Below are positions 23,293 to 41,737 of a stretch of DNA of 48,084 nt, piece after piece; the first letter of the stretch is position 1, and every line of letters begins with the position of its first letter. The stretch spans positions 1 to 48,084 of the forward strand of contig DASQSS010000381.1 in NCBI GenBank assembly GCA_035642255.1, given 5' to 3'. The notes under the pieces were generated by a model. The model had not been told where the DNA came from. It searched no databases and saw nothing but the letters and a program-made list of their open reading frames with translations. This DNA is from Ktedonobacterales bacterium. GTDB lineage: Bacteria > Chloroflexota > Ktedonobacteria > Ktedonobacterales > JADMIN01. A program made the position numbers and the translations under genes.

Positions 23293-24099
23293 TCACGGCG
23301 TCACTGGAATCGCGGGCGCATGGTAGAAACTTGGACTCGTCTCTGTCTCTGCGCCGAGTGGCAAGAGGAGTGTCGGCGCCGGCGACTGTCGCACGATCTG
23401 TGTCGCGACGGCCCCCGCGAAGAAACGCTCGTTGCGCGCTCGGCTGTGCGTCGTCATAACGATGGCGCCGATGCGCTGCCGCTTCGCGAGGCGCACGAGC
23501 GCGGTTCCCGGCTCACCCAGCAGAATCTTCGTCGTGACCGGAGCGGTTGTCCGCTCAGCGGTTTCGCTCTGGAGATGGCGCAGGTAGCTGACGATCTCGT
23601 GGACACGCGCCAGGCGAGTCCGCCGGATGGTGGATGCCAGCGCGCCAAGCAGCTTTGAGGACAGCGCCATCGGGACGACGTGCGTCAACACCACCTCACC
23701 ACCGAACACCTCGGCCAGCGAACAGGCCAAAGGAATCGCTCGCTCAGCATGCTTGTGGCCATCCAGCGGCACGACAACCGTTGGGTGGCGCGCCGTCAGC
23801 AGGGTCGCGGGCGCCAGGTTCGCTGGCCAGAAGAGCAGTGGTGTATGCAGGCGCAGCAGCGCCCACGACGTCGTGTGTGGATACCACACGATCTCTGTCA
23901 GGTCGCGCCGCTGCGGAGTCAACAGAATGAGATCCGCCTGGCGCGACCCGGCCTCTGACGCCGCTGATGGCATCGGCGACTCGACCAGCTCCGCCGAGAC
24001 GAATGTTCCCTGAAAACGCTGGGCTAGCGCGGAGCCAACCGTGAGCGCTAGCTTCGCATCCATATCTGGAGAACGTGGCGTAACGATCGTGTGAAACAT
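23293..24099 (-). CDS. Universal stress protein, tandem USP domains (USP-1)
   Basis: Two USP halves. The C-terminal ATP-binding-type block is VMTTHSRARNERFFAGAVATQIVRQSPAPTLLLP. ATG 24099 is preceded by GGAGGCAGG. Confidence 0.85.
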   Translation of the reverse strand: MFHTIVTPRSPDMDAKLALTVGSALAQRFQGTFVSAELVESPMPSAASEAGSRQADLILLTPQRRDLTEIVWYPHTTSWALLRLHTPLLFWPANLAPATLLTARHPTVVVPLDGHKHAERAIPLACSLAEVFGGEVVLTHVVPMALSSKLLGALASTIRRTRLARVHEIVSYLRHLQSETAERTTAPVTTKILLGEPGTALVRLAKRQRIGAIVMTTHSRARNERFFAGAVATQIVRQSPAPTLLLPLGAETETSPSFYHAPAIPVTP

Positions 24100-24197
24100 A
24101 GCCTGCCTCCATTCAGGCGCCGCCATCAGCCATGCTGTGCGCTGGGGTATCCAGTGGAGTCATGACCTGACGTAACGCCCCTTCAGTGTCGGCGCCA

Positions 24198-24221
24198 GGT
24201 CATCACAGCGCCATCACGAAG
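24198..24221 (-). promoter_or_regulatory. Composite box CTTCGTGATG-N4-TGTGATGAC upstream of USP-1
   Basis: The minus-strand sequence is CTTCGTGATGGCGCTGTGATGACC, which matches hsp20-upstream 36899-36922 at 19 of 24 positions. It lies ~100 nt upstream of the USP-1 ATG. Confidence 0.55.
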
Positions 24222-24241
24222 CGAGGTGGCGCTCTCACGCC

Positions 24242-24250
24242 GTCATCACA
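24242..24250 (-). promoter_or_regulatory. Second GTCATCACA (TGTGATGAC) box in the USP-1/gsp spacer
   Basis: Exact 10-mer CGTCATCACA at 24241-24250. On the minus strand it is preceded by TTGACGGCGTAC. Confidence 0.45.
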
Positions 24251-24296
24251 GTACGCCGTCAAGATACCGGTCTGGAGGCGCCTACAGTCTATGCCC

Positions 24297-24305
24297 GTCA
24301 TCACA
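24297..24305 (-). promoter_or_regulatory. Third GTCATCACA (TGTGATGAC) box in the USP-1/gsp spacer
   Basis: Exact 10-mer CGTCATCACA at 24296-24305. The minus-strand ATGTGATGACG 11-mer is identical to the hsp20 copy. Confidence 0.45.
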
Positions 24306-24498
24306 TACATGGGTAGGTCAATATAGACATAATGTGAGATTTTTGTGACATGCGAGACAGCGCTCGTGCGAGACGTGTGATATCCTCGTTGGATGATGTC
24401 GCATGTGCGGCTGAGAGTGGTTGCAGGCGCCCTTTGTGGACGTTTACCAGGTCGCACAAGATATCATCCGGGAATCCGGATGAGTCGGAGGGGTGAAC

Positions 24499-25071
24499 AT
24501 GAAGACCATTGTTGGCATGTTCGAGAACACGCGCGATGTCGATGCGGTCCTGGCCGAACTCGAGAAGCACGGCTTCAACAAGAACGATGTGAGCGTGGTC
24601 GCTCGCCGTGAGGTGCTCAAGGAAAGCGGTCTCGACATCACGACGGGCGCTGAGGTGGGCGCCATTACGGGAGCGACAACGGGTGGCGTCGCTGGCTTGT
24701 TGATTGGCCTGGGCGCGCTGACGATTCCTGGCATCGGACCGATCGTTGCGGCAGGCGAGTTCCTGACGTGGGTTGGCGCGACGGTGCTGGGCCTGGCTGC
24801 TGGAGCCATCGGTGGTGGCCTGCTCGGTGGTCTGGTGGCGCTGGGTCTGCCAGAGCATGAGGCGAAGGTGTATGTCGAGGGCATCAAGCGCGGCAACCTG
24901 ATCGTCGCAGTGCGCGCGACTGACGAGCGCCTTGCCGAAGCGGAGCAAATCTTCCGCGCTGGGAATGCTGTTGACATCAACACGCGTCGCCAGGAGTGGG
25001 AAGAGGACATCGTTCCAGTGGGCGCGATGAGCCCCACGGAAGAGGCTGGCTATCCCACCACAGAGGCGTAA
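24499..25071 (+). CDS. YflT/general-stress-protein-17M-like protein with central glycine-zipper membrane segment
   Basis: MKTIVGMFENTRDVDAVLAELEKHGF... resembles the YflT N-terminal domain. The centre is GAITGATTGGVAGLLIGLGALTIPGIGPIVAAG. A second alpha/beta module follows (EAKVYVEGIKRGNLIVAV). Confidence 0.65.
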   Translation: MKTIVGMFENTRDVDAVLAELEKHGFNKNDVSVVARREVLKESGLDITTGAEVGAITGATTGGVAGLLIGLGALTIPGIGPIVAAGEFLTWVGATVLGLAAGAIGGGLLGGLVALGLPEHEAKVYVEGIKRGNLIVAVRATDERLAEAEQIFRAGNAVDINTRRQEWEEDIVPVGAMSPTEEAGYPTTEA

Positions 25072-25132
25072 GGTTACGCACGTAACCTGCTCCCTCACCT
25101 TGCTCCCTCGCACAGTGAGAGCGCGGTGACGT

Positions 25133-25171
25133 GGCCCCCGATTCTGGGCGAAAACCCTCGAATCGGGGGCC
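25133..25171 (+). terminator. Hairpin terminator after the YflT-like gene
   Basis: 12-bp perfect stem GGCCCCCGATTC / GAATCGGGGGCC with a 15-nt loop, followed by ATTGTCATT. Confidence 0.5.
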
Positions 25172-25436
25172 ATTGTCATTCTCCCCAACCCAACTCCTAT
25201 GGCTCACGGCGCGATGCGAACAGCTCCCGACTACGAGCGCGCCGCGTGATTGAGAGTGATTGAGACAAGTATGTGAGATGTGCGGCTCGAATTGAGATGA
25301 GAATGTTCATTGGCGGGGATAGGTTCAGAGCGACGGCGCGAGCGTCAGCCTCGCGGAGTAGGCTCTAACGCTCAGGTCAGCCGTCAGCCCGCTGGCGCAT
25401 CACTGACAAGCCAGCCGGTAAGAAGGAGCGTTTCTC

Positions 25437-25877
25437 ATGACGCAGCCCGCACCCGTGCAAACGGTCGATCGTATGTCGCTGATCGTCTTTTCTGGAACCG
25501 TGGACAAGTTGCTAGCCGCCTCCATCCTCGCGACTGGCGCCGCCGCGATGGGACTGGAAGTCGAAATCTTCCTCACGACGTGGGGTATCTTGTCGTTCCG
25601 CAAAGACGACTATCTGACCAACACGCGCCTCAGCAAGGACTTCGAAGAATATGGCCCTGCCATGATGGAAGCCATGCAGGCGAAAAAGGCTACCTCATGG
25701 ATGGAGAACCTGCGCGGCGCCAAAGAAATCGGCGACGTGAAGGTGTTCGCGTGCAGCATGACGATGGAACTGTTCGGCATCAAGCAAAGCGACCTGGACC
25801 CAATCGTGGACGAAGTCACTGGCGTCGCGACGTTTGTCGAACGGGCTAAGGACGCCAAAGTCACACTGTTCATCTGA
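25437..25877 (+). CDS. DsrE/DsrF-like sulfur-relay family protein
   Basis: LIVFSGTVDKLLAASILATGAAAMGLEVEIFLTTWG and VFACSMTMELFG fit the DsrE-like (COG2210-type) pattern. AAGGAG SD upstream. Confidence 0.75.
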   Translation: MTQPAPVQTVDRMSLIVFSGTVDKLLAASILATGAAAMGLEVEIFLTTWGILSFRKDDYLTNTRLSKDFEEYGPAMMEAMQAKKATSWMENLRGAKEIGDVKVFACSMTMELFGIKQSDLDPIVDEVTGVATFVERAKDAKVTLFI

Positions 25878-26001
25878 TTCTCGTTGTCTCGGACCCTTGG
25901 TTTGATGAGCCCGAGATAGAAGGGCGCCGCCGCACCTGCGGCAAGACAGAACACGCTCAGCCGGCGCCGCCCTTTCCAGCATAGGATGGAGGTTTCCCAT
26001 C

Positions 26002-26250
26002 ATGACAGCGCCACAGGATCTCAAAGTCAGCATGGATATCGACGCACGCGGCAGCTTCTGCCCTGGCCCGCTCATGGAGCTGATTCGCGGTATCAAGTCC
26101 CTCAAAGTGGGCGACGTGCTCGCGGTGCGGTCGGGTGATCCCGGCTCGAACAAGGACATCCCCGCGTGGATCCAGAAGGCTGGGCACGAATTCATCGGCG
26201 CTTTCCCCGAAGCTGACTGCACACGCTTCGTTGTGCGCAAGATGCGTTAA
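26002..26250 (+). CDS. TusA/SirA-like sulfurtransferase
   Basis: 82 aa with the diagnostic DARGSFCPGPLM (CPxP) motif. Confidence 0.85.
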   Translation: MTAPQDLKVSMDIDARGSFCPGPLMELIRGIKSLKVGDVLAVRSGDPGSNKDIPAWIQKAGHEFIGAFPEADCTRFVVRKMR

Positions 26251-26264
26251 GAGGGAGCCAAACG

Positions 26265-27467
26265 ATGGCACGGCGTATCGTCATTATCGGTGGCGGGGTT
26301 GGCGGGACGATCCTCGCTAACGTGCTCGCTCGCCGACTCTCGCCCGAAGAAGCTGATGTAACCCTGATTGACAGCACAGGTGTCCATGTCTATATGCCCG
26401 CCTGGCTGTATGTGCCATTCAGCGATGAGCCAGTGAGTCGGAGCCAGTTCGAGCGCCCCGAAGACACCCTGCTGAATCACCGCGTGCACCTGGTCGTCGG
26501 TGAGGTCACGAAGATCGACCCCGCCAATCGTACGCTGGAAGTGAGTCACGGGACCAGCCGCCCGACCATCAAAGGCACGGGCGGGGCCACCAGCGCGATG
26601 TACATGTACGATGAGCTTGTGCTGGCGACGGGCGCCCGGCTGGCTCCGCAAGACCTGACCGGTCTGAGCGAGGCGGCTGGCGCCTATAACGAGTTCTACA
26701 GCGCGCAGGGGGCGTACAACCTGCGCGAGGCGCTCCAGTCGTTCGAGGGTGGGCGCATCGTGGTCGCCGTCGGCGGCATTCCCTACCGATGTCCGCCTGC
26801 GCCGCTGGAGTTCACATTCCTGCTCGATGAGTGGCTGCGACGCCACCACTTGCGCGACAAGACCGAGATCGAGTACCTCTTCCCGCTGCCACGCGTGTTC
26901 CCCATTGAGACCGTGGCTGATGTCGCCGCGCCGCTGCTCGAACAGCAGGGGGTAAAGACGCGGCTGTTCTTCAATGCCGATGAGGTGGATGGCGAGCACA
27001 AGGTCATCAAGTCGCTGGAGGGCGAAGAGGTTCCCTACGATCTGTTGGCTCTCATTCCCCCACATCGCGGCTCGCAGGTGGTCGAGGCGAGCGGGCTGGG
27101 CGATCCACAGGGGTGGGTGGTGACCAACCGCACGACACTGGAAGTAACCAATCACGAGCACATCTATGCGCTCGGCGACGCGACCAATCTGCCCGTTTCA
27201 AAGAGCGGGTCTGCGGCGCACTTCGAGGCAAAGGCGCTGGCTACGCGGCTCGTGGCGCTGGTGCGGGGCGAGCAGCCAGATTCCGAGCATGCCGAGTATG
27301 ATGGTGAGGTGATGTGTTTCCTGGAGACAGGAAACAACCGCGCGACGCAGCTGGTCTTCAACTACGAGAACCCGCCGCATCCGCCGAAGCCAAGCCTCTA
27401 CTATCATATGGAGAAGCAGCTCTTCAATCACGCCTACTGGTACATCGTCCCGCAAGGGATCGTGTAG
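26265..27467 (+). CDS. FAD-dependent sulfide:quinone oxidoreductase-like flavoprotein
   Basis: RIVIIGGGVGGT dinucleotide fold. Conserved-Cys contexts PYRCPPAPLEF and EVMCFLETG resemble the two redox cysteines of SQR-type enzymes. Confidence 0.8.
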   Translation: MARRIVIIGGGVGGTILANVLARRLSPEEADVTLIDSTGVHVYMPAWLYVPFSDEPVSRSQFERPEDTLLNHRVHLVVGEVTKIDPANRTLEVSHGTSRPTIKGTGGATSAMYMYDELVLATGARLAPQDLTGLSEAAGAYNEFYSAQGAYNLREALQSFEGGRIVVAVGGIPYRCPPAPLEFTFLLDEWLRRHHLRDKTEIEYLFPLPRVFPIETVADVAAPLLEQQGVKTRLFFNADEVDGEHKVIKSLEGEEVPYDLLALIPPHRGSQVVEASGLGDPQGWVVTNRTTLEVTNHEHIYALGDATNLPVSKSGSAAHFEAKALATRLVALVRGEQPDSEHAEYDGEVMCFLETGNNRATQLVFNYENPPHPPKPSLYYHMEKQLFNHAYWYIVPQGIV

Positions 27468-27477
27468 GCGCTCATGA

Positions 27478-27525
27478 CCATCTCAGCATGGCTGGCGCGA
27501 GCGCGCCGGGGTCGTGCTGAGATGG
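27478..27525 (+). terminator. Hairpin terminator after the SQR-like gene
   Basis: 11-bp perfect stem CCATCTCAGCA / TGCTGAGATGG enclosing a second GGCGCG/CGCGCC helix, followed by CTTCGTGCGTTGTATTCTT. It begins 11 nt after the stop. Confidence 0.55.
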
Positions 27526-27592
27526 CTTCGTGCGTTGTATTCTTAGTGCGTCAGGCCAGAGCCACCAGGACGATCTGGTCAACACATGTGGA

Positions 27593-27630
27593 CGATTCAG
27601 CGGCGCACCCCCGCCAGCGCCGCTGAATCG
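27593..27630 (+). other. 14-bp perfect hairpin in the SQR/cytochrome b spacer
   Basis: CGATTCAGCGGCGC / loop ACCCCCGCCA / GCGCCGCTGAATCG. No U-tract. ~170 nt upstream of the 41-aa ORF. Confidence 0.6.
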
Positions 27631-27801
27631 CTCGTTCATCCGATCCGGCGTTCCGGCGTTTGTGACTCAAGACACGTTTACCCCCAGGCGCAGGGCGCCG
27701 CCACATGACGAACTTATTCCGCCACGCGCTACCCACTGCTACCACACGCTATGTCGTACGCGCTCACCTTGACACGGGAGCGATCCGAGAGGAGAAACAA
27801 C

Positions 27802-27927
27802 GTGTCTCAGTACGTACAGTTTGGCGCTATTCTCATCACCGTCCCTAACCTGATTGTCATCGGCACGATGATCGTTGTGTTCGCGCTTGGCCTATGGCTG
27901 AAGCTTCCGAGCCATACGAACGAATAG
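27802..27927 (+). CDS. 41-aa single-TM peptide (below the ORF-track length cutoff)
   Basis: GTG at 27802 is preceded by GAGAGGAGAAAC. It encodes VSQYVQFGAILITVPNLIVIGTMIVVFALGLWLKLPSHTNE. Its stop (27925-27927) is embedded in the TAGGAG SD of the cytochrome b gene. Confidence 0.4.
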   Translation: MSQYVQFGAILITVPNLIVIGTMIVVFALGLWLKLPSHTNE

Positions 27928-27936
27928 GAGATCATC

Positions 27937-29574
27937 ATGTCCAACTGGACGTTGACGGTGCGCCGCCAGGTTGACAAGCACTTCCCAAACGACCAGCTCT
28001 TGCCAGATCAGCAACCCGCATTTGTGCGCTCGTCCCTCTATCTGCTGGGCGCGGCGACCCTCGTCAGCTTCATTGTCGTCATTCTCAGCGGCGTCGTATT
28101 GGCGCTGTTCGGGCCACAGTGGTGGCATCAGTCCGCTGTAGGGCATTTCTTCAACAGCGTACACTTCTGGAGTGTTCAGGCGTTCTTCTTCTCCATGGCC
28201 CTCCACCTGTGGACGACGTTCTTCATGGGCGCCTGGCGCGATGGGCGCGCAAAGACCTGGATGATCGGAGTGCTGGCGTTCATCGTGAGCATTCTCACCG
28301 CGTTTACCGGCTATCTCTCGCAGACCAACTTTGACTCGCAGTGGATCGCGGTCTCGGCCAAAGACCTGATGAATTCCATGGGCGTCGGGGGGTTCTTCAA
28401 CCCGCTCAACTTCGGCCAGATGTACACCTATCACATCTTTGTGTTTCCGGCGCTCGTCGCCGCTATCATCGTTCTCCACGTCCTGCTGGTACGGCTGCGC
28501 GGCGTGGTGCGTCCTTACCCGGCTCGCGGCGAGCAGCGTGAAGCCTATCACAAGGGCATGACCCAGACGGAATACTTCCGCGGCGTGCGGATGGCGCCCT
28601 ATGACCTCATCCGCGAGGTCACGATCATTGGCGCTGTGATCCTTGTGCTGGTGGTGGTGTTCGCTGGCGTGTACTCATCTGGCGATGAGCGGCCACTGAC
28701 CCTGCAGAGTGTGGCGCAGAGCGATCCCGTTGGCTTCACCACCGTGAGCCTCTCTGAGCTGGACGGCAGCAGCGCGATCGCTGGCTACGGTCAGCCCTAT
28801 AACACCGCGACCGGCGCGACCCAGGCGCTGGGGCCAATCTCATTCCAGCAGCTGGGCGGCGTGACGATTCCGGTCGATACCGCGCAGGTGTATGTGTATG
28901 GGCCGCTGGCGACCATACACAATGAGTCCGTGCTGGCAGCGGTCGATACGTACAAAGCGGCGTCGGCTGATCAGCAGTCCAAATGGACCACCAGCTATTC
29001 CGACGCGCTAGCGAAAAACACCAACGAAGCGTTGGATGCGAACGGCGCCCTTGTCCTGCCAGCGGGCGATTACGGCCCACTGCCGACGATGTTCAACACA
29101 CTGCTTGTCAACGCGCGCAGCGGCTCGCTCGATGGCATTTTGCTGGCAAGCGGCACATTCTATCAGACGGACTACACCAAGTCGCTGCTCTTCCTGAATG
29201 AGAGCGCCCTGCCCGACAAAGCGAGCGCGGAGCATCTCGCGGGCGATCAGTGGGGCATGATGAATGAGCCGGGAGCCTATCCGGGGCAGGCGTGGCTTTG
29301 GCTCTACACACTGTGGTATCAGGTACCGGCGGGGCCGTTCAATGGGCCAAACGCTGACGTCGCGGTCGCGGTTGTGATGTTCATTCTCACCGCGCTGTTG
29401 TTCCTGGTACCGTTCATACCTGGCCTCGAAAGCCTGCCACGCTATCTGCGGCTCTACCGCGTCATCTGGCGCGATCACTATCGAGAAATGGAGCGTGGCC
29501 AGTCGCCTTCGGGTAGCGGAGTGCGCGCCGCTGGCGGGCCTATGGCGCGGCGCATGACGGGGCGCACACAGTAG
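27937..29574 (+). CDS. Cytochrome b6-like N-terminal domain fused to a large C-terminal extracytoplasmic region
   Basis: Four N-terminal helices with His pairs spaced H-x13-H (VHFWSVQAFFFSMALH) and H-x14-H (HIFVFPALVAAIIVLH). A fifth TM follows, then ~230 soluble residues and a last TM. Confidence 0.8.
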   Translation: MSNWTLTVRRQVDKHFPNDQLLPDQQPAFVRSSLYLLGAATLVSFIVVILSGVVLALFGPQWWHQSAVGHFFNSVHFWSVQAFFFSMALHLWTTFFMGAWRDGRAKTWMIGVLAFIVSILTAFTGYLSQTNFDSQWIAVSAKDLMNSMGVGGFFNPLNFGQMYTYHIFVFPALVAAIIVLHVLLVRLRGVVRPYPARGEQREAYHKGMTQTEYFRGVRMAPYDLIREVTIIGAVILVLVVVFAGVYSSGDERPLTLQSVAQSDPVGFTTVSLSELDGSSAIAGYGQPYNTATGATQALGPISFQQLGGVTIPVDTAQVYVYGPLATIHNESVLAAVDTYKAASADQQSKWTTSYSDALAKNTNEALDANGALVLPAGDYGPLPTMFNTLLVNARSGSLDGILLASGTFYQTDYTKSLLFLNESALPDKASAEHLAGDQWGMMNEPGAYPGQAWLWLYTLWYQVPAGPFNGPNADVAVAVVMFILTALLFLVPFIPGLESLPRYLRLYRVIWRDHYREMERGQSPSGSGVRAAGGPMARRMTGRTQ

Positions 29575-29616
29575 TCGCCAGCGTGTCTGGCGTTCACGGA
29601 GTCCAAGACGTGACGT

Positions 29617-29670
29617 GCCCTCGCCTTCTGTTCCCCTCATTTCATATGAGAGGGGTCAGGGGGTGAGGGC
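29617..29670. repeat. GC-rich REP-like imperfect palindromic element (copy 2)
   Basis: GCCCTCGCCTTCTGTTCCCCTCA / TTTCATA / TGAGAGGGGTCAGGGGGTGAGGGC. It shares the GGGTGAGGGCGC end with copy 1 and is followed by an 11-mer whose inverse recurs at 29817-29827. Confidence 0.6.
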
Positions 29671-29840
29671 GCGTCGCCATATGCGCTGGAGTGATCTGTT
29701 TTCGTGTCTCTCTGTGTTCCAGCGGCTTCCGCGTCGCTCACAGTGGCGTCACAAAGCGCGCGTCGTATGTCAACCTCCGCTCTCAGGGCAGGGCGCGGAT
29801 GCGTGACCGGTGTGCGGCGCATATGGCCCTCGCGCCTCGG

Positions 29841-29859
29841 CTGTGACGCGCCTGTGACG
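29841..29859 (+). promoter_or_regulatory. Direct repeat CTGTGACG x2 (11-bp period) upstream of USP-2
   Basis: CTGTGACG at 29841-29848 and 29852-29859. TGTGATCGTGA follows at 29890-29900. ~140 nt upstream of the USP-2 ATG. Confidence 0.35.
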
Positions 29860-29998
29860 TCGACGAGAGACTGCCAGGGGGAACTGTGCTGTGATCGTGA
29901 GCCACTGCCCATACAGTGATCAGTGGTGGAGTGGAATATAGCGCGACGCAACACCCTCGCGCTCCCTGGCATGTCTGGTCGCGGACAGGAGGAAATCG

Positions 29999-30922
29999 AT
30001 GTTCACACGAGTGCTGGCGCCCATTGACACGCATCCTGATGCGATTGTCTCGGTGGCATTGGCCGAGCAGATTGCGCGTCATACACACGCCGAGCTATTC
30101 CTCATGCGTGTCGTCCCGGATGCGACGTCGAAAGGCGACGTCGTCGCCCACAGGGAAAGTCTCGAGCGTTTGGCTGCGGACATCACCGTGCGTGGGGGAC
30201 TGGAACCGCATATCGAAGTGGTTACCGGTCGTCCTGACGCCCGCATCCTCGAAACCGCTGAGCGGGAGGATGTCGATCTAATTGTCCTCGCGCCGCATGC
30301 TCGCGCTGGACTCGACGCGCTTCGTCACCGCAGCGTCACGACCCGGCTGATCTCGCATACGGCGGTTCCCCTCCTCGTCGCGCCTGAGCACAACATCGGC
30401 TCCTGGCCCGCTGGGCTCCTCTCCGCGGCGACCTCGCTGGTGATCGTGCCCGTGGACGGCACAGCGCTCTCCGAGCAAGCTATTGGCATTGGCGAACGCA
30501 TCGCCGAGACATGGGAGCGCCCGCTGCTGCTGTTGCGGGTCATCGAGCCATTCAGCTTGTATGGCGCTGGACCGACGACGACGCTCCTGGAGCGGCAGCT
30601 CAGCGAGGAAGACGCTCAGCAGGCGCATAGCGTGCTGAGTAATCTGCGGGCGCGTGTGGCGCGGCAGACGAATGTCGCGGTGGAGGCGATGGTCAAGCAG
30701 GGCGCCGCGGATCGCGTCATCGCGCAAGCCGCCGATAGCTATCCGGGCAGCCTGATCGTGATGAGCACGCATGGACGCAAGGCGACCGAGCGTGCGGTGC
30801 TGGGGAGTGTCGCGCTGAATGTGTTGCGGCGCAGCCACGAGCCGACACTGATTCTGCCGCCTATGGCTGTCATGCGGCGGGCGATGGCGCATGCGGGCGC
30901 CACAGCCGAGTTGGAGTGGTAA
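29999..30922 (+). CDS. Universal stress protein, tandem USP domains (USP-2)
   Basis: Two USP halves (MFTRVLAPIDTHPD...; VIVPVDGTALSEQA...; MSTHGRKATERAVLGSVALNVLRR). GGAGGAAA SD upstream. Confidence 0.85.
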   Translation: MFTRVLAPIDTHPDAIVSVALAEQIARHTHAELFLMRVVPDATSKGDVVAHRESLERLAADITVRGGLEPHIEVVTGRPDARILETAEREDVDLIVLAPHARAGLDALRHRSVTTRLISHTAVPLLVAPEHNIGSWPAGLLSAATSLVIVPVDGTALSEQAIGIGERIAETWERPLLLLRVIEPFSLYGAGPTTTLLERQLSEEDAQQAHSVLSNLRARVARQTNVAVEAMVKQGAADRVIAQAADSYPGSLIVMSTHGRKATERAVLGSVALNVLRRSHEPTLILPPMAVMRRAMAHAGATAELEW

Positions 30923-30982
30923 GGCGCCAAACGGCAGGCGTAGTGTCGCGCGTGCACCGCGTTGTTGAAAGGATATGAGCGC

Positions 30983-33007
30983 ATGGTCACGTCTCCGATT
31001 GAACGGACGCCAAGAACGACGCCCGCAGAGGAGAGACCGCCCAGCGCGGGCGCGGAATCGCGCGCGACGACGCTCTGGCGTTTGGCGCGTCGCTATCCCA
31101 TTCCACTGGTCGCGGCGGGACTGCTGCTGATCAGCGGCATGCTCGCGCTGGCGGCTCCGGCGAACCTCTGGCGCTGGCCTCTGCTGCTGATTATCGTAGT
31201 TGGAGGCGCGCCGCTGCTGATCGAGACGGCGCGCCAACTTGTCCACCGTGAATTCGGCGTGGATCTGCTCGCCGCGATGGCCATCGTCGGTTCCCTGCTT
31301 CTCGGGGAGTATCTGGCGGGCGCGGTCATCGTGCTGATGCTCTCGGGCGGTGAGGCGCTCGAAGCATTCGCGCTGAGCCGCGCGCGCCGCTCGCTCTCCG
31401 CGTTGGCGGAGCGGGCGCCCCGTGTCGCGCACCTCTTCGTCAATGGTGAGCTGGTGACGGTCGCGGCTGACACAGTGGAGGTCGGCGCGCAGGTCATTGC
31501 CAAGCCAGGCGAGGTCATTCCCGTGGATGGCGTCGTGGCCGAGGGAAGCTCCAGTGTGAGCGAGGCTGACCTGACAGGTGAACCGGTCCCATTGCGCAAG
31601 GAGCCAGGGTCGCTCGTCCTCTCAGGCAGCCTCAATCTCGATAGCCCGTTGCGCATCAACGCAACCAAGCGCAGCGCCGAGAGCCAATACGCGCAGATCG
31701 TGCGGCTGGTTGAAGAGGCGCAAGCCAGCAAGGCGCCCATCCACCGCCTGGCTGATAGATATGCGGTGTGGTTCACTGCCATCGCGGTGGTCGTGGCCGC
31801 CGTCGCGTGGATCCGTACCGGGCAGCCAGTAGATGCGCTCGCTGTGCTGGTCGTCGCGACCCCCTGCCCGTTGATTCTGGCGACCCCGATCGCCATCATG
31901 TCTGGCATTGACCGCGCCGCGCGCGACGGCCTCATTACCAAGAGCGGCGCGACCATTGAAGATCTTGGCGGGGTCGATGTGGTCGTCTTTGATAAGACTG
32001 GAACCCTGACCCTGGGCATGCCAAAGCTGACCGAGGTGGCGGCGGTCTCTGTGGCGAGTGAAGGCGCCGCCACGATAGCGAGTAGAGCGACGCCTGATCA
32101 GGATACGCTGATCGCGCTGGCCGCTTCGGTCGAGCAATATTCGCCACACATTCTGGCGCGGGCTGTGGTTGACGCCGCGCACGAACGAGGCGCCCAATTG
32201 CGCGCTGTTACCGATATGCGCGAGATTCCCGGCCAGGGCATTGAGGGTAATGTCGCCTATGCCGACCACGGCGTTGACCAGATCAAGGTCGCGGTTGGCA
32301 ATCGCGCCTACCTGGGCAGCCTCGGCATTGACCTGCCCTCTGCCGTCACCGATGAACGGGCGCGCCGTACCGAGCAAGGGCAAATTGTGAGCTTCCTCGC
32401 GCTCGACGGTCAGTTCATGGGTCTGCTCGTCTTCGCTGATGTGCCACGCCCGGAGCTGGCGCAGCTCACGCCAGAGTTGAAGGCGGCAGGCATCAAGCAA
32501 ACGGTGCTCCTGACAGGCGACGGCGTGACCGTCGCGGAGCAAATTGGCAAGCTGGCGCACGTTGATCGTGTGGTGGCGCACTGCCTGCCAGAGAACAAAG
32601 TGGCCGTCGTGCGTGAGCTGCAGGAGAGCGGGAGCCATGTGCTTATGGTGGGTGATGGCGTCAACGACGCGCCTGCGCTGGCGACGGCGTCTGTGGGCAT
32701 CGCCATTGGTTCGCAAGGGCTGACAGCCGCCTCATCCGCCGCCGACGCGGTGCTACTCTCGCCGAACATCCTGCGCATCGCCTCGTCGGTGCGGCTGGGG
32801 CGTCAGGTAATGCGGGTCGCGCGCCAGGGCATCGGGATCGGCATTGGGTTGAGCATCATCGCGATGATTTTCGCCGCTTTAGGATATATTCCACCGACAG
32901 AGGGCGCGCTGCTGCAAGAGGTTATCGACGTGATCGTCATCCTCAACGCGCTGCGGGCGGGGCGACAGGGATTGAGGGAGGAGCGACATGGCGACCAAAC
33001 CCGCTAA
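30983..33007 (+). CDS. P1B-type heavy-metal P-type ATPase with TPCP transmembrane motif, no N-terminal metal-binding domain
   Basis: DKTGTLT, LLTGDG, GDGVNDAPAL. The TM metal site reads ATPCPLILATP (TPCP). The short N-terminus has no CxxC. The start is uncertain (ATG 30983 or TTG 30962). Confidence 0.9.
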   Translation: MVTSPIERTPRTTPAEERPPSAGAESRATTLWRLARRYPIPLVAAGLLLISGMLALAAPANLWRWPLLLIIVVGGAPLLIETARQLVHREFGVDLLAAMAIVGSLLLGEYLAGAVIVLMLSGGEALEAFALSRARRSLSALAERAPRVAHLFVNGELVTVAADTVEVGAQVIAKPGEVIPVDGVVAEGSSSVSEADLTGEPVPLRKEPGSLVLSGSLNLDSPLRINATKRSAESQYAQIVRLVEEAQASKAPIHRLADRYAVWFTAIAVVVAAVAWIRTGQPVDALAVLVVATPCPLILATPIAIMSGIDRAARDGLITKSGATIEDLGGVDVVVFDKTGTLTLGMPKLTEVAAVSVASEGAATIASRATPDQDTLIALAASVEQYSPHILARAVVDAAHERGAQLRAVTDMREIPGQGIEGNVAYADHGVDQIKVAVGNRAYLGSLGIDLPSAVTDERARRTEQGQIVSFLALDGQFMGLLVFADVPRPELAQLTPELKAAGIKQTVLLTGDGVTVAEQIGKLAHVDRVVAHCLPENKVAVVRELQESGSHVLMVGDGVNDAPALATASVGIAIGSQGLTAASSAADAVLLSPNILRIASSVRLGRQVMRVARQGIGIGIGLSIIAMIFAALGYIPPTEGALLQEVIDVIVILNALRAGRQGLREERHGDQTR

Positions 33008-34124
33008 TGACCAGAAGCGCTATCTGGTGAACCTGCGCGAGGAACGCGATTCCTCGGCGCTCTATCGTGGCCTGGCGGAGATCGAGAAGGACCCACGCCT
33101 GGCGGACGTCTATCGGCGCATGTCCGAGGTTGAGAGCCGCCACGCCGCCACCTGGGGCGCCCTGCTGCGCGACGCGGGGCAATCCGCGCCGCCGGATGCG
33201 CCGACCTTGCGTGTGCGGACGCTGCTCTGGATGGCGCGACGCTTCGGCGCGGGCATGGTCTTGCCGATGATCGCCTCATCTGAGCGCGGCGCCAGCCACA
33301 GCTACGATGCGCAGCCTGAAGCGCGAGCCGCTGGCATGCCCGCCGATGAGCGCTCACACGAGCGCGTCTTTGGCATGCTGCTGCAAACGACGAAGGGCGG
33401 AGTCGCTGGCTCTGTGCTTGCGCAGCTCGAAGGGCGTCACCGTGGCACGTCGGGCGGCAATGCCTTGCGCGCAGCGGTGCTCGGCTCCAGCGACGGGCTG
33501 ACCTCCAATCTGAGCCTCGTGATGGGTGTCGCGGGCGCATCGCTCCAGCCGCACCAAATCCTGCTCACTGGACTTGCAGGACTGCTGGCTGGCGCGCTCT
33601 CGATGGCGATTGGCGAATGGCTCTCCGTGCAGAGCGCTCGCGAGCTGTATGGCAGCCAGATCAATGTCGAGCGCCAGGAGTTGGAGGCGAGGCCGGAGGA
33701 AGAGCGCGAGGAGCTCTCGCTGATCTATCAGGCCAAGGGACTAGACGCCGCCGCCGCGAATGATCTGGCCGCGCGCATCGTCTCGGACCCGACGACCGCG
33801 CTCGATACCCTCGCGCGCGAGGAGCTGGGTATTGATCCAAAGGAACTGGGCGGCTCAGCGTGGGAAGCGGCTATCGCATCGTTCATGCTGTTCGCGGTTG
33901 GCGCGATCATTCCAGTCATTCCGTTCATTTTTCTGGCAGGCCTGACCGCTGTCGCGGTCAGTATTGGGCTGAGCATTCTGGGGCTGTTCACCATTGGCGC
34001 GGGCATCACGCTGACCACGGGCTCGCCGCTGTGGAAGGCGAGTGGCCGTCAGATCATCATGGGAATCGCCGCCGCGCTGATTACGTTCGGCCTGGGTCGC
34101 CTGGTTGGTGGTGCGCTCGGTTGA
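32988..34124 (+). CDS. Erythrin/ferritin-like domain fused to VIT1/CCC1 transporter (MbfA-like iron exporter)
   Basis: The N-terminal four-helix region has two ExxH motifs (EVESRH, DERSHE). The C-terminus is a polytopic VIT1-like domain (LGSSDGLTSNLSLVMG...). The ATG overlaps the ATPase 3' end by 20 nt, with a GGGAGGAG SD. Confidence 0.85.
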   Translation: MATKPANDQKRYLVNLREERDSSALYRGLAEIEKDPRLADVYRRMSEVESRHAATWGALLRDAGQSAPPDAPTLRVRTLLWMARRFGAGMVLPMIASSERGASHSYDAQPEARAAGMPADERSHERVFGMLLQTTKGGVAGSVLAQLEGRHRGTSGGNALRAAVLGSSDGLTSNLSLVMGVAGASLQPHQILLTGLAGLLAGALSMAIGEWLSVQSARELYGSQINVERQELEARPEEEREELSLIYQAKGLDAAAANDLAARIVSDPTTALDTLAREELGIDPKELGGSAWEAAIASFMLFAVGAIIPVIPFIFLAGLTAVAVSIGLSILGLFTIGAGITLTTGSPLWKASGRQIIMGIAAALITFGLGRLVGGALG

Positions 34125-34419
34125 GTCGCGCCCGACTAAATCGCTCCCGGCAGAATTGAGGCTGGTGGGTGAGAGGACATCGAGAAACCTGGTTGATGCG
34201 CTGTGACACGTCTGTGAGCGGCGCGGCATAGGCTCTGAGTATGAGGCGATGCCCCCACCTGAGGGCGGAGCGCACAGAGAGTGATAACCATGGCACAGCG
34301 CTGGCACGGTCGCGCTCCGGCTCGAAACGTCGGACGATGATACTCCAGGCAGCGTCGCTTGAGAGCGAATCAATCATCACTCATCGGGCGCCCCGCCCTC
34401 AGGCTATTCAAGAACCATG

Positions 34420-34432
34420 CATGCAATGCATG
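34420..34432. promoter_or_regulatory. Palindrome CATGCA-A-TGCATG within an ATGCAT-rich cluster
   Basis: Read directly from the sequence. The cluster CATGCATGCAATGCATGTGTGCATG spans 34416-34440, ~55 nt upstream of the ATG at 34492. Confidence 0.35.
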
Positions 34433-34491
34433 TGTGCATGTTCACGGATGGAGCCCGCGACCGAACATGCGGGCACAGAAGGAGCGACGAC

Positions 34492-34776
34492 ATGACAACG
34501 CTGTTCACGTCTGGCAATCCGCTAAGGGATAACACGTTGACGACCGCCACCGCTACAAAGGTCACCACGCCAGCGGCGGAGGCGCCGATCGATACGAGCG
34601 CGTTGGCCGATGACGCTTATCTCGCCGAGCGGCTAGACGCCGAGCGGCTGGATCGGCAGGCGCGGCGGATCGCTACCATTGTCGCGTCGGCGCTGCTCGT
34701 CGCCGCCTTCGCAACGGGCGCTGCGACAATTCTGGTGCGGCGCTACGCGAAACAGCGCGGCGAGGCCGCCCTATAG
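34492..34776 (+). CDS. Hypothetical tail-anchored membrane protein (94 aa)
   Basis: ATG 34492 lies 7 nt after AAGGAG. C-terminal TM IATIVASALLVAAFATGAATILV. No family recognised. Confidence 0.4.
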   Translation: MTTLFTSGNPLRDNTLTTATATKVTTPAAEAPIDTSALADDAYLAERLDAERLDRQARRIATIVASALLVAAFATGAATILVRRYAKQRGEAAL

Positions 34777-34829
34777 GGCCGCAGGGCGACATGCTCGCGG
34801 CTCCGCTACCATCGCGGAGGGAGGGCGCC

Positions 34830-35738
34830 ATGTTCGAGCGTATGCTTGCCGCAGTTGATGAGTCAGCGCGCGCGGAGCAGGTCATGCGCATGGGCCGCGC
34901 TCTGGCGCAGGATTCAGGTGGCGCGCTGATCGTGCTGCGGGTGCGTCCGGACCCGCCAGTGCTCGACCGCGTGACCAACGGCGACGTGGCGCTGGCGGAG
35001 CAGACGGGCGCCCTGCGCGCAGCGGGCATCGCGGCCCACTATCTCGTGCACGCTGGCAGCCCCGAGCGGCAAATCATCGAGACGGCGCGTCAGCAGCGAT
35101 CCACGCTGATCATCATCGCGGCGCGCGAGAATGGTCCGCATCTGGCGCCACGCCGACGCATGACGGACCGGCTGGCTGCTCGAGCGCCCGCGCCACTGCT
35201 GGTCATTCCAGAGGACAACTCCCAGGCGTCAGTGGCGTCAACGGACGTGGACGGGACTGAGTTCTTCGGCCCCGATGGAGCGCCCGTCCTAGTCGCACTG
35301 GATGGCTCACCCCTGGCGGAGCGTGCGCTGCCCTACGCGGCGGAGCTTGCGGCGCGACTTGGGCGCCCGCTGGCGCTGCTGCGCGTCGCCTCGCCACTGC
35401 GCTCGCAAGAACAACTCGCCGAGGCCTGGTCGTATGTGGAGAGCGCGCGGCGGCGTGTGCGTGAGCGAATCTCGCGTGATCTATCGATTGACGCGCAGGT
35501 GGTCGTCGGCGCGCCGATCGACGAACTGCTCTGGGCGGTCGAGGGGCGGAGAGCGTGCGCTATCGTTCTGACGGCGCGGGGTCAGCACGAGGGGCGTCCG
35601 CAGCGCGCTAGCGCCATCACGCTTGACGTAGTGCGCAAGCTGCGGATTCCCGCGCTTATCATTCCCTCGCCTGTGCTCGCATCTGATCCTCAGGTGGAAT
35701 TGCAGCCAGCTAAAGGCCTTGGCGATAGGGCGCCATAG
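34830..35738 (+). CDS. Universal stress protein, tandem USP domains (USP-3)
   Basis: MFERMLAAVDES... and VLVALDGSPLAERALPYAAELA... halves. ATG 34830 follows GGAGGGAGGG. Confidence 0.85.
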   Translation: MFERMLAAVDESARAEQVMRMGRALAQDSGGALIVLRVRPDPPVLDRVTNGDVALAEQTGALRAAGIAAHYLVHAGSPERQIIETARQQRSTLIIIAARENGPHLAPRRRMTDRLAARAPAPLLVIPEDNSQASVASTDVDGTEFFGPDGAPVLVALDGSPLAERALPYAAELAARLGRPLALLRVASPLRSQEQLAEAWSYVESARRRVRERISRDLSIDAQVVVGAPIDELLWAVEGRRACAIVLTARGQHEGRPQRASAITLDVVRKLRIPALIIPSPVLASDPQVELQPAKGLGDRAP

Positions 35739-35805
35739 CGTCGTATGCTTCTGGCATGAGGCGCCAGGGGATGGCGCGGGTGCTGTGAGAAACGGAGCGG
35801 AAGCC

Positions 35806-36690
35806 ATGGCACAGGCGGATGGTCACGTCATACTGACGCCACTCGACGGCTCAGAGATGTCGGAGTTCGCGGTTCCTTATACCGCTGAGGTTGCGAGGGC
35901 ACTGGGCGCGACGGTTCTGATAGCGCGCATCGTCGAGCGCACGCGTTGGAGCGCCGCAAGCTCCGGCTACATGATGTCGCCAGGCGCCTATACGGAGCTG
36001 CTGGAGCTTGATGAGCGCGACGCGCAGGCGCAGACCCATCGCGTGGTCGAGCGACTGACGGCGCAGGGTGTGGCAGCGCGCGGCCTCGTGGAGGACGCCG
36101 ACCTGCCCGCCGATCTCATCGACATCGAGAGGCGAGAGCATGTCTCACTGGTAGTCATGGCGACTCACGCGCGCAGTGGGCTCGCGCGGGTGACACTGGG
36201 CAGCGTCGCTGATCAGCTTGTGCGTCATGGCCGCTGCCCAACCTTGCTGGTACGGGCGCATGGCGCCTTGCCAGAGCGGCCAGCGCTTGCCCGCGCGCTC
36301 ATCCCGCTGGACGGCTCGGCAGTGAGCGAGCTGGCGTTGGCGGAACTGGCGAACGTGGCGGGTACGCTGGTGAAGCAGGTCACGCTGCTGCGAGTCATCG
36401 GCCCGGAGGAGCGCAGCGGAGCCTCCGCCGAGGGACATCGCGCGTTGGAGGCGGCGCGTGAGCGGGTCGAGCGCGCGTCTGAGTCGCTGCGTGGGCAGGT
36501 CAAGACGCTCGTGATGTGGGGACAGGTCGCGCAGCAGGTCCTCGACGAATCGGCGCGCCACGATCTCATCATCATGGCGACCCACGGCGCGGGTGGCGCG
36601 ACCCGCTGGGCATTTGGCAGCGTCGCGGATCAAGTTCTCAGTGAAGCGCAGGCGCCGCTGCTGCTCACGCGGCCTCATCACAAACCATAA
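35806..36690 (+). CDS. Universal stress protein, tandem USP domains (USP-4)
   Basis: VILTPLDGSEMSEFAVPY..., MATHARSGLARVTLGSVADQLVRH, and a second half ending MATHGAGGATRWAFGSVADQVL. Confidence 0.85.
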   Translation: MAQADGHVILTPLDGSEMSEFAVPYTAEVARALGATVLIARIVERTRWSAASSGYMMSPGAYTELLELDERDAQAQTHRVVERLTAQGVAARGLVEDADLPADLIDIERREHVSLVVMATHARSGLARVTLGSVADQLVRHGRCPTLLVRAHGALPERPALARALIPLDGSAVSELALAELANVAGTLVKQVTLLRVIGPEERSGASAEGHRALEAARERVERASESLRGQVKTLVMWGQVAQQVLDESARHDLIIMATHGAGGATRWAFGSVADQVLSEAQAPLLLTRPHHKP

Positions 36691-36898
36691 GGCGACACGC
36701 ATAGCTGTGTAGGCCGCCACGGTCAGCGGAAGGGCGACGAAAGTTTTACGCCATTTCACTGAGCGTGGCGGCTCGTTCTGTGACCCATCTCTCAATACGC
36801 GCCCGAGCCATGTGAAACGATGAAGACACAAGGAAGACACGAGCGGATGCAGGTCGCGCCTCTCACGGGATGACGCAAAGCGTGACATTGACGCCTGG

Positions 36899-36922
36899 CT
36901 TCGTGATGCGCATGTGATGACG
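36899..36922 (+). promoter_or_regulatory. Composite box CTTCGTGATG-N4-TGTGATGACG upstream of hsp20
   Basis: CTTCGTGATGCGCATGTGATGACG. Two GTGATG direct repeats 11 bp apart. It ends 118 nt upstream of the hsp20 ATG, in the same orientation relative to the gene as the USP-1 copy. Confidence 0.55.
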
Positions 36923-37039
36923 AGCGCATATGTTGTGTGTGAACGCCATGGAAGGCTCCGCGCATCGGAGCGCGGCCAGAACCAGCATGGCGTCGCATCC
37001 CGGTAACAGGATGCGGTCACGGAAAGGAAGGACACGTCT

Positions 37040-37498
37040 ATGGCAAAGGAACCGCGTGAGTTGACCTCGTGGGAACCGTTCGGCATGGTGACGCCGCTCC
37101 GTGAGGCGATGAACCGCCTGTTCGAAGACAGCTTCATCAGCCCTGCGCGCTTCGAGCCAATGTTTGGGCGCGGGCTCCCGCTCGACGTCTTCGAGGCCGA
37201 TAATGAGTTCATCATTGACGCCTCGCTGCCGGGCGTGAAACCCGAAGACCTGAAGGTGAGCGCGACCGACGACAGCCTGACCATCCGCGCAACAATGAAA
37301 CACGAGACGCACGACGAGCAAAAGGGCTCCTATGTGCGGCGTGAGCGTCAGGACGGCGAGGTCGTTCGCTCGATAGCGTTCGCCACTCCGATTGATCCGT
37401 CGAAGGTCAACGCCCACTACGAGCATGGCGTCTTGCGCGTTACGGCGCCGAAAGCCGAGGCCGCTAGACCACGACAGATTGATGTCACCGTGCACTAA
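37040..37498 (+). CDS. Small heat-shock protein, Hsp20/alpha-crystallin family
   Basis: Alpha-crystallin domain (LDVFEADNEFIIDASLPGVKPEDLKV...HGVLRVTAPK). AAGGAAGGA SD upstream. Confidence 0.93.
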   Translation: MAKEPRELTSWEPFGMVTPLREAMNRLFEDSFISPARFEPMFGRGLPLDVFEADNEFIIDASLPGVKPEDLKVSATDDSLTIRATMKHETHDEQKGSYVRRERQDGEVVRSIAFATPIDPSKVNAHYEHGVLRVTAPKAEAARPRQIDVTVH

Positions 37499-37586: not shown

Positions 37587-37613
37587 ATAGATGTTGATAG
37601 ATGCTCATAGATG
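37587..37613 (+). promoter_or_regulatory. Three helically phased direct repeats ATAGATG (exact 10-bp period)
   Basis: ATAGATG at 37587, 37597 and 37607, immediately after the hsp20 terminator and 42 nt before the USP-5 ATG. Confidence 0.5.
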
Positions 37614-37654
37614 CGAAGGACAACGGCAACGACGCGCCAGAGAGGGGTGTCGAC

Positions 37655-41280: not shown

Positions 41281-41637
41281 CTACCACTGACCACCGCGCG
41301 AGTAGTCGTCGCGGCGACCGCCGCCACCGTAGCCGCCACCAGAAGAGCGGCCACCACCACCGTAGCCGCCACCAGAGCGGCCGCCAGCGGGGCGCTCTGC
41401 GGCTTCGTCGAGTCGCAGCGCGCGATTGCCGAGCATCGTGCCGTTGAGGCCAGCAATCGCGTTGCGCGCCTCATCTTCGGTCGACATCTCGACGAACCCA
41501 AAGCCCTTGCTCTGACCGGTGTTGCGATCAGTAATTACACGAGCGTCAACAACAGTGCCATACGCAGCAAACATCTGATGCAGCTGCGCGTCGTCGGTAG
41601 CATAGGGCAGATTCCCTACGTAAATGCGAGTGCCCAC
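41281..41637 (-). CDS. RRM-type RNA-binding protein with Gly/Arg-rich tail
   Basis: RNP2 IYVGNL and RNP1 KGFGFVEM, with a GGYGGGGRSSGGGYGGGGR tail. The probable GTG start at 41637 lies 5 nt after GAAGGAG. Confidence 0.9.
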   Translation of the reverse strand: MGTRIYVGNLPYATDDAQLHQMFAAYGTVVDARVITDRNTGQSKGFGFVEMSTEDEARNAIAGLNGTMLGNRALRLDEAAERPAGGRSGGGYGGGGRSSGGGYGGGGRRDDYSRGGQW

Positions 41638-41737
41638 AAAGGCTCCTTCAAACACACGGTATGGAGCGTCTGAGTAGGCGCGACATACCTTCCGAACAGT
41701 AACCAGTCAACCAATGCGCCACTCGCCTCGTAACAGG

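Follow-up and report, generated by a model that had tools for sequence, protein, structure and literature searches.

GTGA-core hexamer arrays upstream of stress genes in Ktedonobacterales and other Chloroflexota: putative sites of an OmpR-type response regulator

Hexamer arrays in the promoters of a stress island

The DNA analysed here, referred to as the window, is the whole stretch of 48,084 nucleotides of contig DASQSS010000381.1 from a Ktedonobacterales bacterium (assembly GCA_035642255.1). It has a GC content of 65%, about 16% of it is intergenic, and it carries a stress island in which Pfam identified five universal stress protein (USP) genes, hsp20, genes for YflT-like, DsrE, TusA and SQR-like proteins, and further genes for a cytochrome b, a P-type ATPase and a VIT1/rubrerythrin protein. 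Upstream of several of these genes lie arrays of a hexamer with a GTGA core, repeated in an 11-bp register and followed at a nearly constant distance by a -10-like hexamer. A preliminary description of the window had drawn attention to a box common to the promoters of hsp20 and of the USP gene USP1 and had read it as the operator or activator site of a regulator not encoded in the window. The following genes and operons are preceded by arrays or pairs of the hexamer.

23293..24100, minus strand: USP1, universal stress protein gene (Pfam Usp, E = 1.8e-20)
24499..25071, plus strand: YflT-like general stress protein gene (Pfam YflT)
34417..36690, plus strand: orf34417-USP-USP operon (Pfam Usp for 34791-35738 and 35719-36690; synteny conserved)
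37040..37498, plus strand: hsp20, small heat-shock protein gene (Pfam HSP20, E = 3e-19)

The gene USP2 is a weaker case, and USP5 (37601-38905; Pfam Usp), downstream of hsp20, is possibly co-transcribed with it. No transcription-factor domain was found in Pfam scans of about 40 open reading frames from the window, about 8 of which matched no family, in agreement with a regulator encoded elsewhere.

Both boxes were found as previously described: the hsp20 box at 36899-36922 (plus strand) reads exactly CTTCGTGATGCGCATGTGATGACG, the USP1 box at 24198-24221 (minus strand) reads CTTCGTGATGGCGCTGTGATGACC, the two are identical at 19 of 24 positions, and each holds two copies of GTGATG 11 bp apart (36903/36914 for hsp20 and 24217/24206 for USP1). 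The conserved unit had been given as a 10-mer with a GAC tail and proved instead to be a hexamer, (T)GTGAnn, in an 11-bp register; in the usual arrays the hexamers stand at offsets 0, 11, 32 and 43, on the same strand and directed toward the gene. The 10-mer CGTCATCACA does recur at 24241-24250 and 24296-24305, the latter copy not being conserved in relatives. The argument that such copies are unlikely by chance holds for TGTGATGAC, which occurs four times against 0.31 expected (0/100 shuffles reached four) and is confined to two stress-gene spacers, those of USP1/YflT and hsp20, but not for the 10-mer with up to one mismatch, which is not significant by itself (8 against 4.1 expected). The hexamers in the window are arranged as follows.

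36882..36887, plus strand: distal hexamer GTGACA of the hsp20 promoter, 21 nt upstream of the first proximal hexamer (array position 2 of 4)
Within 36899..36922, plus strand: proximal hexamer pair of the hsp20 promoter, GTGATG 36903-36908 and GTGATG 36914-36919
24201..24249, minus strand: four-hexamer array of USP1, GTGATG 24249-24244, GTGAGA 24238-24233, GTGATG 24217-24212 and GTGATG 24206-24201
24334..24382, plus strand: four-hexamer array directed toward the YflT-like gene, GTGAGA 24334, GTGACA 24345, GTGCGA 24366 and GTGATA 24377
34203..34219, plus strand: pair of the orf34417 operon, GTGACA-cgtct-GTGAGC
29843..29859, plus strand: pair of USP2 (upstream of USP / P-type ATPase / VIT1 genes), GTGACG-cgcct-GTGACG

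In the hsp20 promoter, positions two to four of the four-hexamer layout are occupied (36882, 36903 and 36914). The USP1 array, with offsets 0, 11, 32 and 43, takes in both the box at 24198-24221 and the 10-mer copy at 24241-24250, and back-to-back with it lies the YflT array, which was absent from the preliminary description. Two stretches had been listed there as weaker relatives of the box; the one at 34191-34210 is a real conserved site, with its hexamers at 34203-34208 and 34214-34219, and the one at 24391-24407 is not a box and covers the -10-like GATGAT that follows the separate array at 24334-24382.

The pattern GTGA-N7-GTGA was found 11 times in the window against 1.19 expected (shuffle maximum 4), and 8/11 of these pairs are intergenic. 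The intergenic distances between GTGA words on the same strand peak at 11 (8 cases), 21 (3), 32 (6) and 43 (4), the background being 0-2, and three arrays with at least 3/4 GTGA at offsets 0/11/32/43 are present in the window against 0.015 in shuffles.

The last repeat is followed after about 9 nt (range 7-10), and almost always at exactly 9, by a -10-like hexamer of the form TAnnnT. The -10-like hexamers of the window, some of them deviating from this form, are listed below.

36929..36934, plus strand: hsp20, TATGTT, 9 nt after the last hexamer (orthologues TACGGT, TATGAT and TACCCT at the same offset)
34229-34234, plus strand: orf34417 operon, TAGGCT, 9 nt after the pair
24185..24190, minus strand: USP1, weak, GACACT, 10 nt after the array
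24392..24397, plus strand: YflT-like gene, GATGAT, 9 nt after the array
29867-29872, plus strand: USP2, GAGACT, 7 nt downstream of the pair

Among the related loci fetched for comparison (given below by L numbers), the USP1 promoter has ATCACT at 9 nt in L262 and L263. The four-hexamer array of L268 is followed at 9 nt by CACACT. N9-TAnnnT was also found before the SHOCT-ackA-xfp operon of L262 (TACGCT) and before the hsp20 (TATGCT) and DsrE (TATATT) genes of L268. For the full pattern GTGA-N7-GTGA-N11-TAnnnT there were 11 matches in the 130 kb of window and relatives against 0.017 expected. No sigma-70 -35/-10 pair was found in the hsp20 spacer, and no -35 hexamer lies 16-18 nt from TATGTT. 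If TAnnnT is the -10 element, the proximal pair would lie at about -38 to -22, in the place of the -35 element, and the distal pair at about -70 to -54.

The orthologous loci were fetched via hsp20 homologues and YflT homologues. In the hsp20 promoters of orthologues (72-82% protein identity) the GTGA cores are invariant columns and the distance to the ATG is kept, while the spacers vary: the proximal pair, with the spacer cgcat in the window, reads GTGATG-cgatt-GTGATG in L249, GTGACG-catat-GTGATG in L254 and GTGACG-gagcc-GTGAGA in L258, and the distal hexamer reads GTGACA, GTGATA and GTGACG in these three loci, respectively. The divergent USP1/YflT gene pairing is kept in L262-L266, and in the USP1 promoters beside YflT orthologues (83-91% identity) the cores are again invariant and the spacers diverged, with all four hexamers kept in L262, L263 and L264. 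The register of the YflT array was read by eye in L262 and L263 as TTGAYA-ttttt-GTGATR ... GTGATA, 9 nt, CATGAT. The sites orthologous to that of the orf34417 operon (L252 4270, L254 1787 and L258 737) consist of the pair, 9 nt and then TACGCT or TACTGT. Of the USP2 site, L262 retains just the proximal hexamer and GAGATT, which makes this site a weaker member. The footprint over orthologous hsp20 and USP1 promoters, with its fixed orientation and fixed distance to the -10-like hexamer, supports the reading as a putative operator or activator site, as does the recurrence upstream of functionally related genes across Chloroflexota.

Range across genomes and a candidate regulator

The four-hexamer pattern was searched for in 185,579 species genomes (one genome per species), giving at least 119 loci, and an exact-box scan of genomes with GTGATG-N5-GTGATGAC, giving at least 120 loci, served as the control set; all counts from the two scans are given among the matches listed. 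Chloroflexota made up 45/119 array loci (48 arrays) compared with 7/120 control loci, and Ktedonobacteria 24/119 compared with 0/120, these fractions being samples and not censuses. TAnnnT was located exactly 9 nt downstream in 31/48 Chloroflexota arrays (19/26 in Ktedonobacteria and 12/22 in other Chloroflexota) against 2/85 arrays in other phyla, and a T precedes GTGA in about 65% of the Chloroflexota arrays against 28% in other phyla. Given these taxon counts and the contrast in N9-TAnnnT, the architecture is, among the matches listed, specific to Chloroflexota and present in at least three of its classes (Ktedonobacteria, Dehalococcoidia and Chloroflexia).

The matches to the exact box in genomes, and to TTCGTGATG-N5-GTGATGAC in metagenomes, were among those listed chance-like, lay mostly in coding sequence as judged by eye, and included none from a relative, so that the exact GAC-tailed box appears to be lineage-specific. 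One locus with the exact USP1 box including its spacer (L139, GC 0.53) was treated as a chance match, about 0.12 being expected among the 120 matches listed.

The hsp20 and USP1 spacers resemble each other over about 65 bp with one 4-nt indel, which might on its own be taken for the functionless remnant of a local duplication or for a chance repeat. That explanation is scarcely credible, given that conservation across orthologues, different genes and classes extends to the hexamer cores and not to the spacers, and that shuffles never reached the observed numbers of arrays and pairs.

The genes downstream of the arrays in relatives encode Hsp20, USPs, a P-type ATPase, an ADP-forming acetyl-CoA synthetase, alanine dehydrogenase, multicopper oxidases and nitroreductase, and further the NiFe-hydrogenase small subunit, cytochrome bd subunit I, phosphoketolase together with acetate kinase, 2-hydroxyacid dehydrogenase, ferredoxin/FAD oxidoreductases, DoxX and OmpR-type two-component systems. 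This gene content suggests a regulon for stress and for energy or oxygen limitation, and by analogy the set resembles regulons known from other phyla, those of DosR, Rex, ResD and ArcA. The mycobacterial DosR (DevR) dormancy regulon, with many USPs, an alpha-crystallin/Hsp20, nitroreductases and ferredoxin-type genes, is similar in gene content, although the likeness is one of function only. DosR itself, of the NarL/LuxR type, recognizes a palindrome of 20 bp (GGGACT...AGTCCC type), whereas the sites described here are direct-repeat arrays, so that no membership of that family is implied; no such palindrome was noticed on reading the spacers, although no pattern search for it was made.

The nature of the targets would also suit a symmetric dimer for which the TGTGA words are half-sites, either Rex (TTGTGAA-N4-TTCACAA) or a regulator of CRP/FNR type. 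TGTGA is the half-site of CRP, and cytochrome bd, 2-hydroxyacid dehydrogenase and alanine dehydrogenase, all targets in the relatives, are classical Rex targets. The same core forms the half-site of the Rex operator, TTGTGAAW4TTCACAA (PMC2883068). However, every copy in an array is a direct repeat on one strand, a TCAC partner at the spacing needed is missing, and an 11-bp register with copies at 21, 32 and 43 is unlike a single palindromic operator, which makes a Rex- or CRP-type dimer extremely unlikely. The operator of the RheA / hsp18-type thermosensor is likewise an inverted repeat, TGTCATC-N5-GATGACA; it was rejected as a candidate, the GATGAC copies having the same orientation within each spacer and forming no inverted pair.

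Some of the arrays lie in front of regulatory genes. In L308 (Ktedonobacteraceae) an array precedes an operon of a histidine kinase (HK) and a response regulator (RR), the latter consisting of Response_reg and Trans_reg_C by Pfam, with TAGAAT 10 nt after the last hexamer; the same spacer holds, by eye, a divergent array toward a multicopper oxidase gene. Orthologues of this RR (71-80% identity by tblastn) are located directly beside arrays in L304 and L332, and in L344 (Dehalococcoidia) a GAF-PAS-HK-REC-Trans_reg_C fusion has an array in front of it, whose last hexamer is followed after 8 nt by TAGAAT. Overall, an OmpR-type RR gene was present within 15/119 array loci compared with 1/120 control loci (Fisher p = 1.7e-4). 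The nearest relatives of the L308-type RR among solved structures are RpaA, RegX3, KdpE, MtrA and PhoP, and its identity to the remaining OmpR-type RRs of the fetched loci is only about 40%. A search of genome contigs with the L308 histidine kinase returned only the kinase itself, and no Pfam domain was found in its N-terminal 220 residues. Given that its own operon carries an array, a signature of autoregulation, the L308 system is the best candidate, and to judge from this gene order the orthologue group of the L308-type HK-RR pair may supply the regulator, an assignment that we rate at somewhat below even odds.

The association with OmpR-type RR genes (15/119 against 1/120 loci, as above) counts against another explanation, in which the hexamers are promoter elements read by an alternative stress sigma factor and not by a transcription factor. 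GTGACA and GTGACG match TTGACA at 4-5/6 positions, and the motif stands at a constant distance from a -10-like hexamer. The proximal hexamers, however, lie 9 and 20 nt from TAnnnT, neither of which is a workable distance for a -35 element, and up to four phased copies reaching out to about -70 would be superfluous for a sigma factor. We therefore regard this explanation as very unlikely.

Outside Chloroflexota, GTGA repeats in the 11-bp register were also seen directly upstream of OmpR-type RR genes, in L367 at 4983-5115 (Falsiroseomonas; a run of overlapping arrays), in L271 at 1591-1637 and in L317 at 3893-3939 (Actinomycetota), which suggests autoregulated systems with related half-sites in other phyla. 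The Dehalococcoidia chromosome OY282365.1 carries near-perfect tandem GTGACAnnnnn repeats at L287 5101-5147 and L292 1713-1759, and in other Dehalococcoidia (L273, L286 and probably L291) small genes of the HTH_17 (excisionase-like) type, which may belong to mobile elements, have arrays in front of them.

Proposed mechanism and related systems

We propose, with a probability of roughly 70%, that the arrays are sites at which an OmpR-type response regulator acts as an activator substituting for the -35 element. The regulator is taken to be of the OmpR/PhoB type because of the geometry inferred from the sequence: direct repeats in an 11-bp register, additional phased copies, a position over a missing -35 element and a short fixed distance to the -10. 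All known sites of the OmpR/PhoB family are direct repeats bound by tandem dimers (PMC4832192), and in the arrays the repeats are direct and not inverted, all hexamers of an array being on one strand. The period of about 10-11 bp with 6-7 conserved and 4-5 variable positions that marks the family is seen in the intergenic peak at 11, and additional repeats in helical phase are seen at 21, 32 and 43 and in the conserved 0/11/32/43 arrays. Head-to-tail dimers of a winged-helix response regulator of this type would bind the repeats, one dimer on the proximal pair and a second on the distal pair, and both together would recruit or adapt RNA polymerase at a promoter lacking a -35 element, as PhoB does at pho boxes and as SARPs do.

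Several points weigh against this proposal. The gap between the pairs is 32, and not the 22 or 33 of the commonest PhoB/ArcA arrangement reported. The -10 assignment was made from sequence alone, and several promoters have weak -10-like hexamers or offsets within 7-10 nt (USP1 GACACT, YflT GATGAT and USP2 GAGACT). The second hsp20 hexamer has been lost in L252, which shows turnover of individual sites; orthologous promoters do not count as independent observations; and the taxonomic fractions come from samples. The candidate RR is absent from the window and its orthologue was not found in this organism. Finally, a site over -38 to -22 would suit a repressor equally well.

In this last case the same arrays would be operators of a repressor, either of OmpR type or a direct-repeat binder such as a CtsR-like protein, which would occlude RNA polymerase at -38 to -22 and be released under stress. 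The array overlaps the core promoter, heat-shock and stress genes are frequently under repressor control, and ArcA, an OmpR-family protein with multi-repeat sites, is reportedly mainly a repressor. On the other hand, the search of the hsp20 spacer gave no -35 match at 16-18 nt, a hallmark of activator-dependent promoters; the strict co-orientation and the fixed distance to the -10 over three classes match SARP activators and the pho box at -35; and arrays before the regulator's own operon fit positive autoregulation, which is common in two-component systems. Given these points, repression appears unlikely, and activation by an OmpR-type regulator remains the preferred interpretation.

Among characterized systems the E. 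coli PHO box is close to the arrays. It consists of two 11-nt direct units (about 7 conserved and 4 variable positions) around -35 at promoters lacking a -35 element (PMC4415409; PMC8601176). Its core CTGTCAT is one base from the CTGTGAY of the arrays, it is oriented as transcription, and extra upstream repeats are possible; it differs in that the core of the arrays is TGTGA and not TGTCA, that their second pair is offset by 32 whereas PHO units are contiguous at 22, and that the array targets are stress and energy genes whereas PhoB controls phosphate-scavenging genes.

At promoters controlled by SARPs, such as those with the afs box of AfsR, the repeats are direct and spaced by 11 or 22 bp, and 8 bp separate the 3' repeat from the -10 (PMC10936776). 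In the arrays the corresponding spacings are 11 and 21, and the repeats, counted as 7-mers, end 8 nt before TAnnnT. The afs box is centred near -29.5 over a poor -35 element and is followed by a weak -10 of CACTGT type, and the mechanism is termed 'sigma adaptation' (PMC10936776); the proximal pair of the arrays, at about -38 to -22, would similarly be centred near -30. SARPs, in contrast, carry a BTAD domain, control actinomycete antibiotic clusters and are not phosphorylation-dependent response regulators, whereas Pfam found no BTAD domain in the array-linked regulators of L308 and L344, which have a classical REC and Trans_reg_C together with a histidine kinase.

Streptomyces MtrA binds a 17-bp site, GTnAcC-n5-GTnAcn, made of 6-bp direct repeats with a 5-bp spacer (PMC13189361), and GTGACG-n5-GTGACG fits this site. 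M. tuberculosis PhoP is bound as a tandem dimer to 7-bp repeats with a 4-bp spacer, TCACAGC-N4-TCACAGC, the reverse complement of which is GCTGTGA-N4-GCTGTGA, and three to four repeats are bound with higher affinity (PMC4832192). Both regulators belong to another phylum, and with the candidate RR only about 40% identical to other OmpR-type RRs orthology to either is not established; neither for MtrA nor for PhoP has a four-site 0/11/32/43 layout or a fixed N9 to the -10 been described. A further OmpR-family protein, E. coli ArcA, has the repeat TGTTA, unlike the TGTGA of the arrays. ArcA is redox-responsive, acts on energy-metabolism genes and binds direct repeats 11 bp centre to centre, its sites having two to five repeats at 11 or 22 bp and mostly three to five (PMC3798270); the positions of ArcA sites relative to promoters are variable, in contrast to those of the arrays.

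In the literature searched, no described motif or regulon of this kind was found, and essentially no work on transcriptional regulation in Chloroflexota. The mechanism class, an OmpR-type activator on direct repeats at -35, is already well known, so that the novelty lies in the regulon and the motif and not in the principle. The arrays may tentatively be taken, as a view with a fair amount of doubt attached, to mark an undescribed Chloroflexota-wide regulon, in which an array-autoregulated OmpR-type two-component system would use a SARP-like 'sigma adaptation' to switch on a programme for dormancy or energy limitation, as an independently evolved counterpart of DosR. This programme would include USPs, Hsp20, cytochrome bd, NiFe hydrogenase, nitroreductase, alanine dehydrogenase and phosphoketolase/acetate kinase.

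Members of the Chloroflexota abound in soil, sediment and hot-spring habitats. The pattern (T)GTGAnn x4 at 0/11/32/43, N9, TAnnnT offers a computational handle for a stress and persistence regulon in their genomes or metagenome-assembled genomes, and the L308-type HK-RR pair, as candidate regulator, offers a testable link to dormancy entry and persistence. Trace-gas hydrogenases are reported to support persistence in Chloroflexota (PMC6776052).

Further features of the window

Two further occurrences of the repeat were found in spacers of the window.

24296..24305, minus strand: isolated exact copy of TGTGATGACG, with TAGACT (24291-24286) 7 nt further on
29736..29752, minus strand: pair GTGACG-ccact-GTGAGC in the USP2 spacer, directed away from USP2, with no -10-like hexamer after the pair

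The isolated copy has no counterpart at this position in L262 and L263, is lineage-specific and may represent either an additional half-site or a promoter further upstream. The pair at 25115-25131, just past the stop codon of the YflT-like gene and before a terminator-like hairpin, is not conserved in L262 and is probably due to chance, as are the pairs in coding sequence at 22221, 22569 and 30325, which are without a -10. A GC-rich long inverted repeat, CCCCCGATTC...GAATCGGGGG, at 25133-25170 after the YflT-like gene is probably its terminator.

Between the back-to-back arrays of USP1 and the YflT-like gene lies a conserved block, GACATAAT(A/G)T, at 24320-24333 (plus strand), which is also present in L262, L263 and L264. 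A sigma-70-like GTCACA-18-TATATT was called on the minus strand of the same spacer at 24349-24320, and the region of the block may serve as a basal promoter or be another site. The Shine-Dalgarno sequence of the YflT-like gene is directly preceded by a stable hairpin (window 24464-24483, L262 about 9963-9989) with compensatory changes, CATCCGG/CCGGATG in the window and CATCTGG/CCAGATG in L262 (folding z = -2.6 and -3.4), which may be an mRNA-stabilising stem or an RNA thermometer. In front of the Shine-Dalgarno sequence of hsp20, a comparable stem (36995-37014) was not significant by folding (hsp20 leader z = -1.6 and -1.2).

The exact 10-mer ATGTGCGGCT is located at 24403-24412 and 25278-25287, just downstream of the -10-like hexamers of the YflT-like and DsrE genes (two copies against 0.20 expected; two reached in 1/100 shuffles), and may be a common initial-transcribed or second regulatory element. 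The DsrE promoter of the window was rejected as an array member, given that GTGATT-gaga-GTGATT repeats there with a period of 10 bp and lacks conservation; in the distant relative L268 the DsrE gene is preceded by a canonical pair with the TATATT given above. The DsrE-TusA-SQR promoter has another conserved block, GTGAKR-N13-TTGAGATG-N5-TGTTC, common to four relatives (window 25240-25300, L262 about 10750-10800, and also L263 and L264), and the tandem GTGATTgagaGTGATT with its 10-bp period is found in the window only. This suggests that the DsrE-TusA-SQR promoter is under a separate, perhaps sulfide-responsive, regulator.

In relatives a gene of about 205 amino acids without a Pfam match lies between the second USP gene and hsp20 (L252 6989-7618, L254 4553-5164 and L258 3364-3987); it is absent from the window, where a 349-nt spacer (36691-37039) takes its place. 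Bacterial RRM proteins are to our knowledge uncommon outside cyanobacteria, and a gene for an RRM_1 RNA-binding protein is located in the window at 41281-41655 (minus strand), with a syntenic position downstream of the island in L127, L252 and L253.

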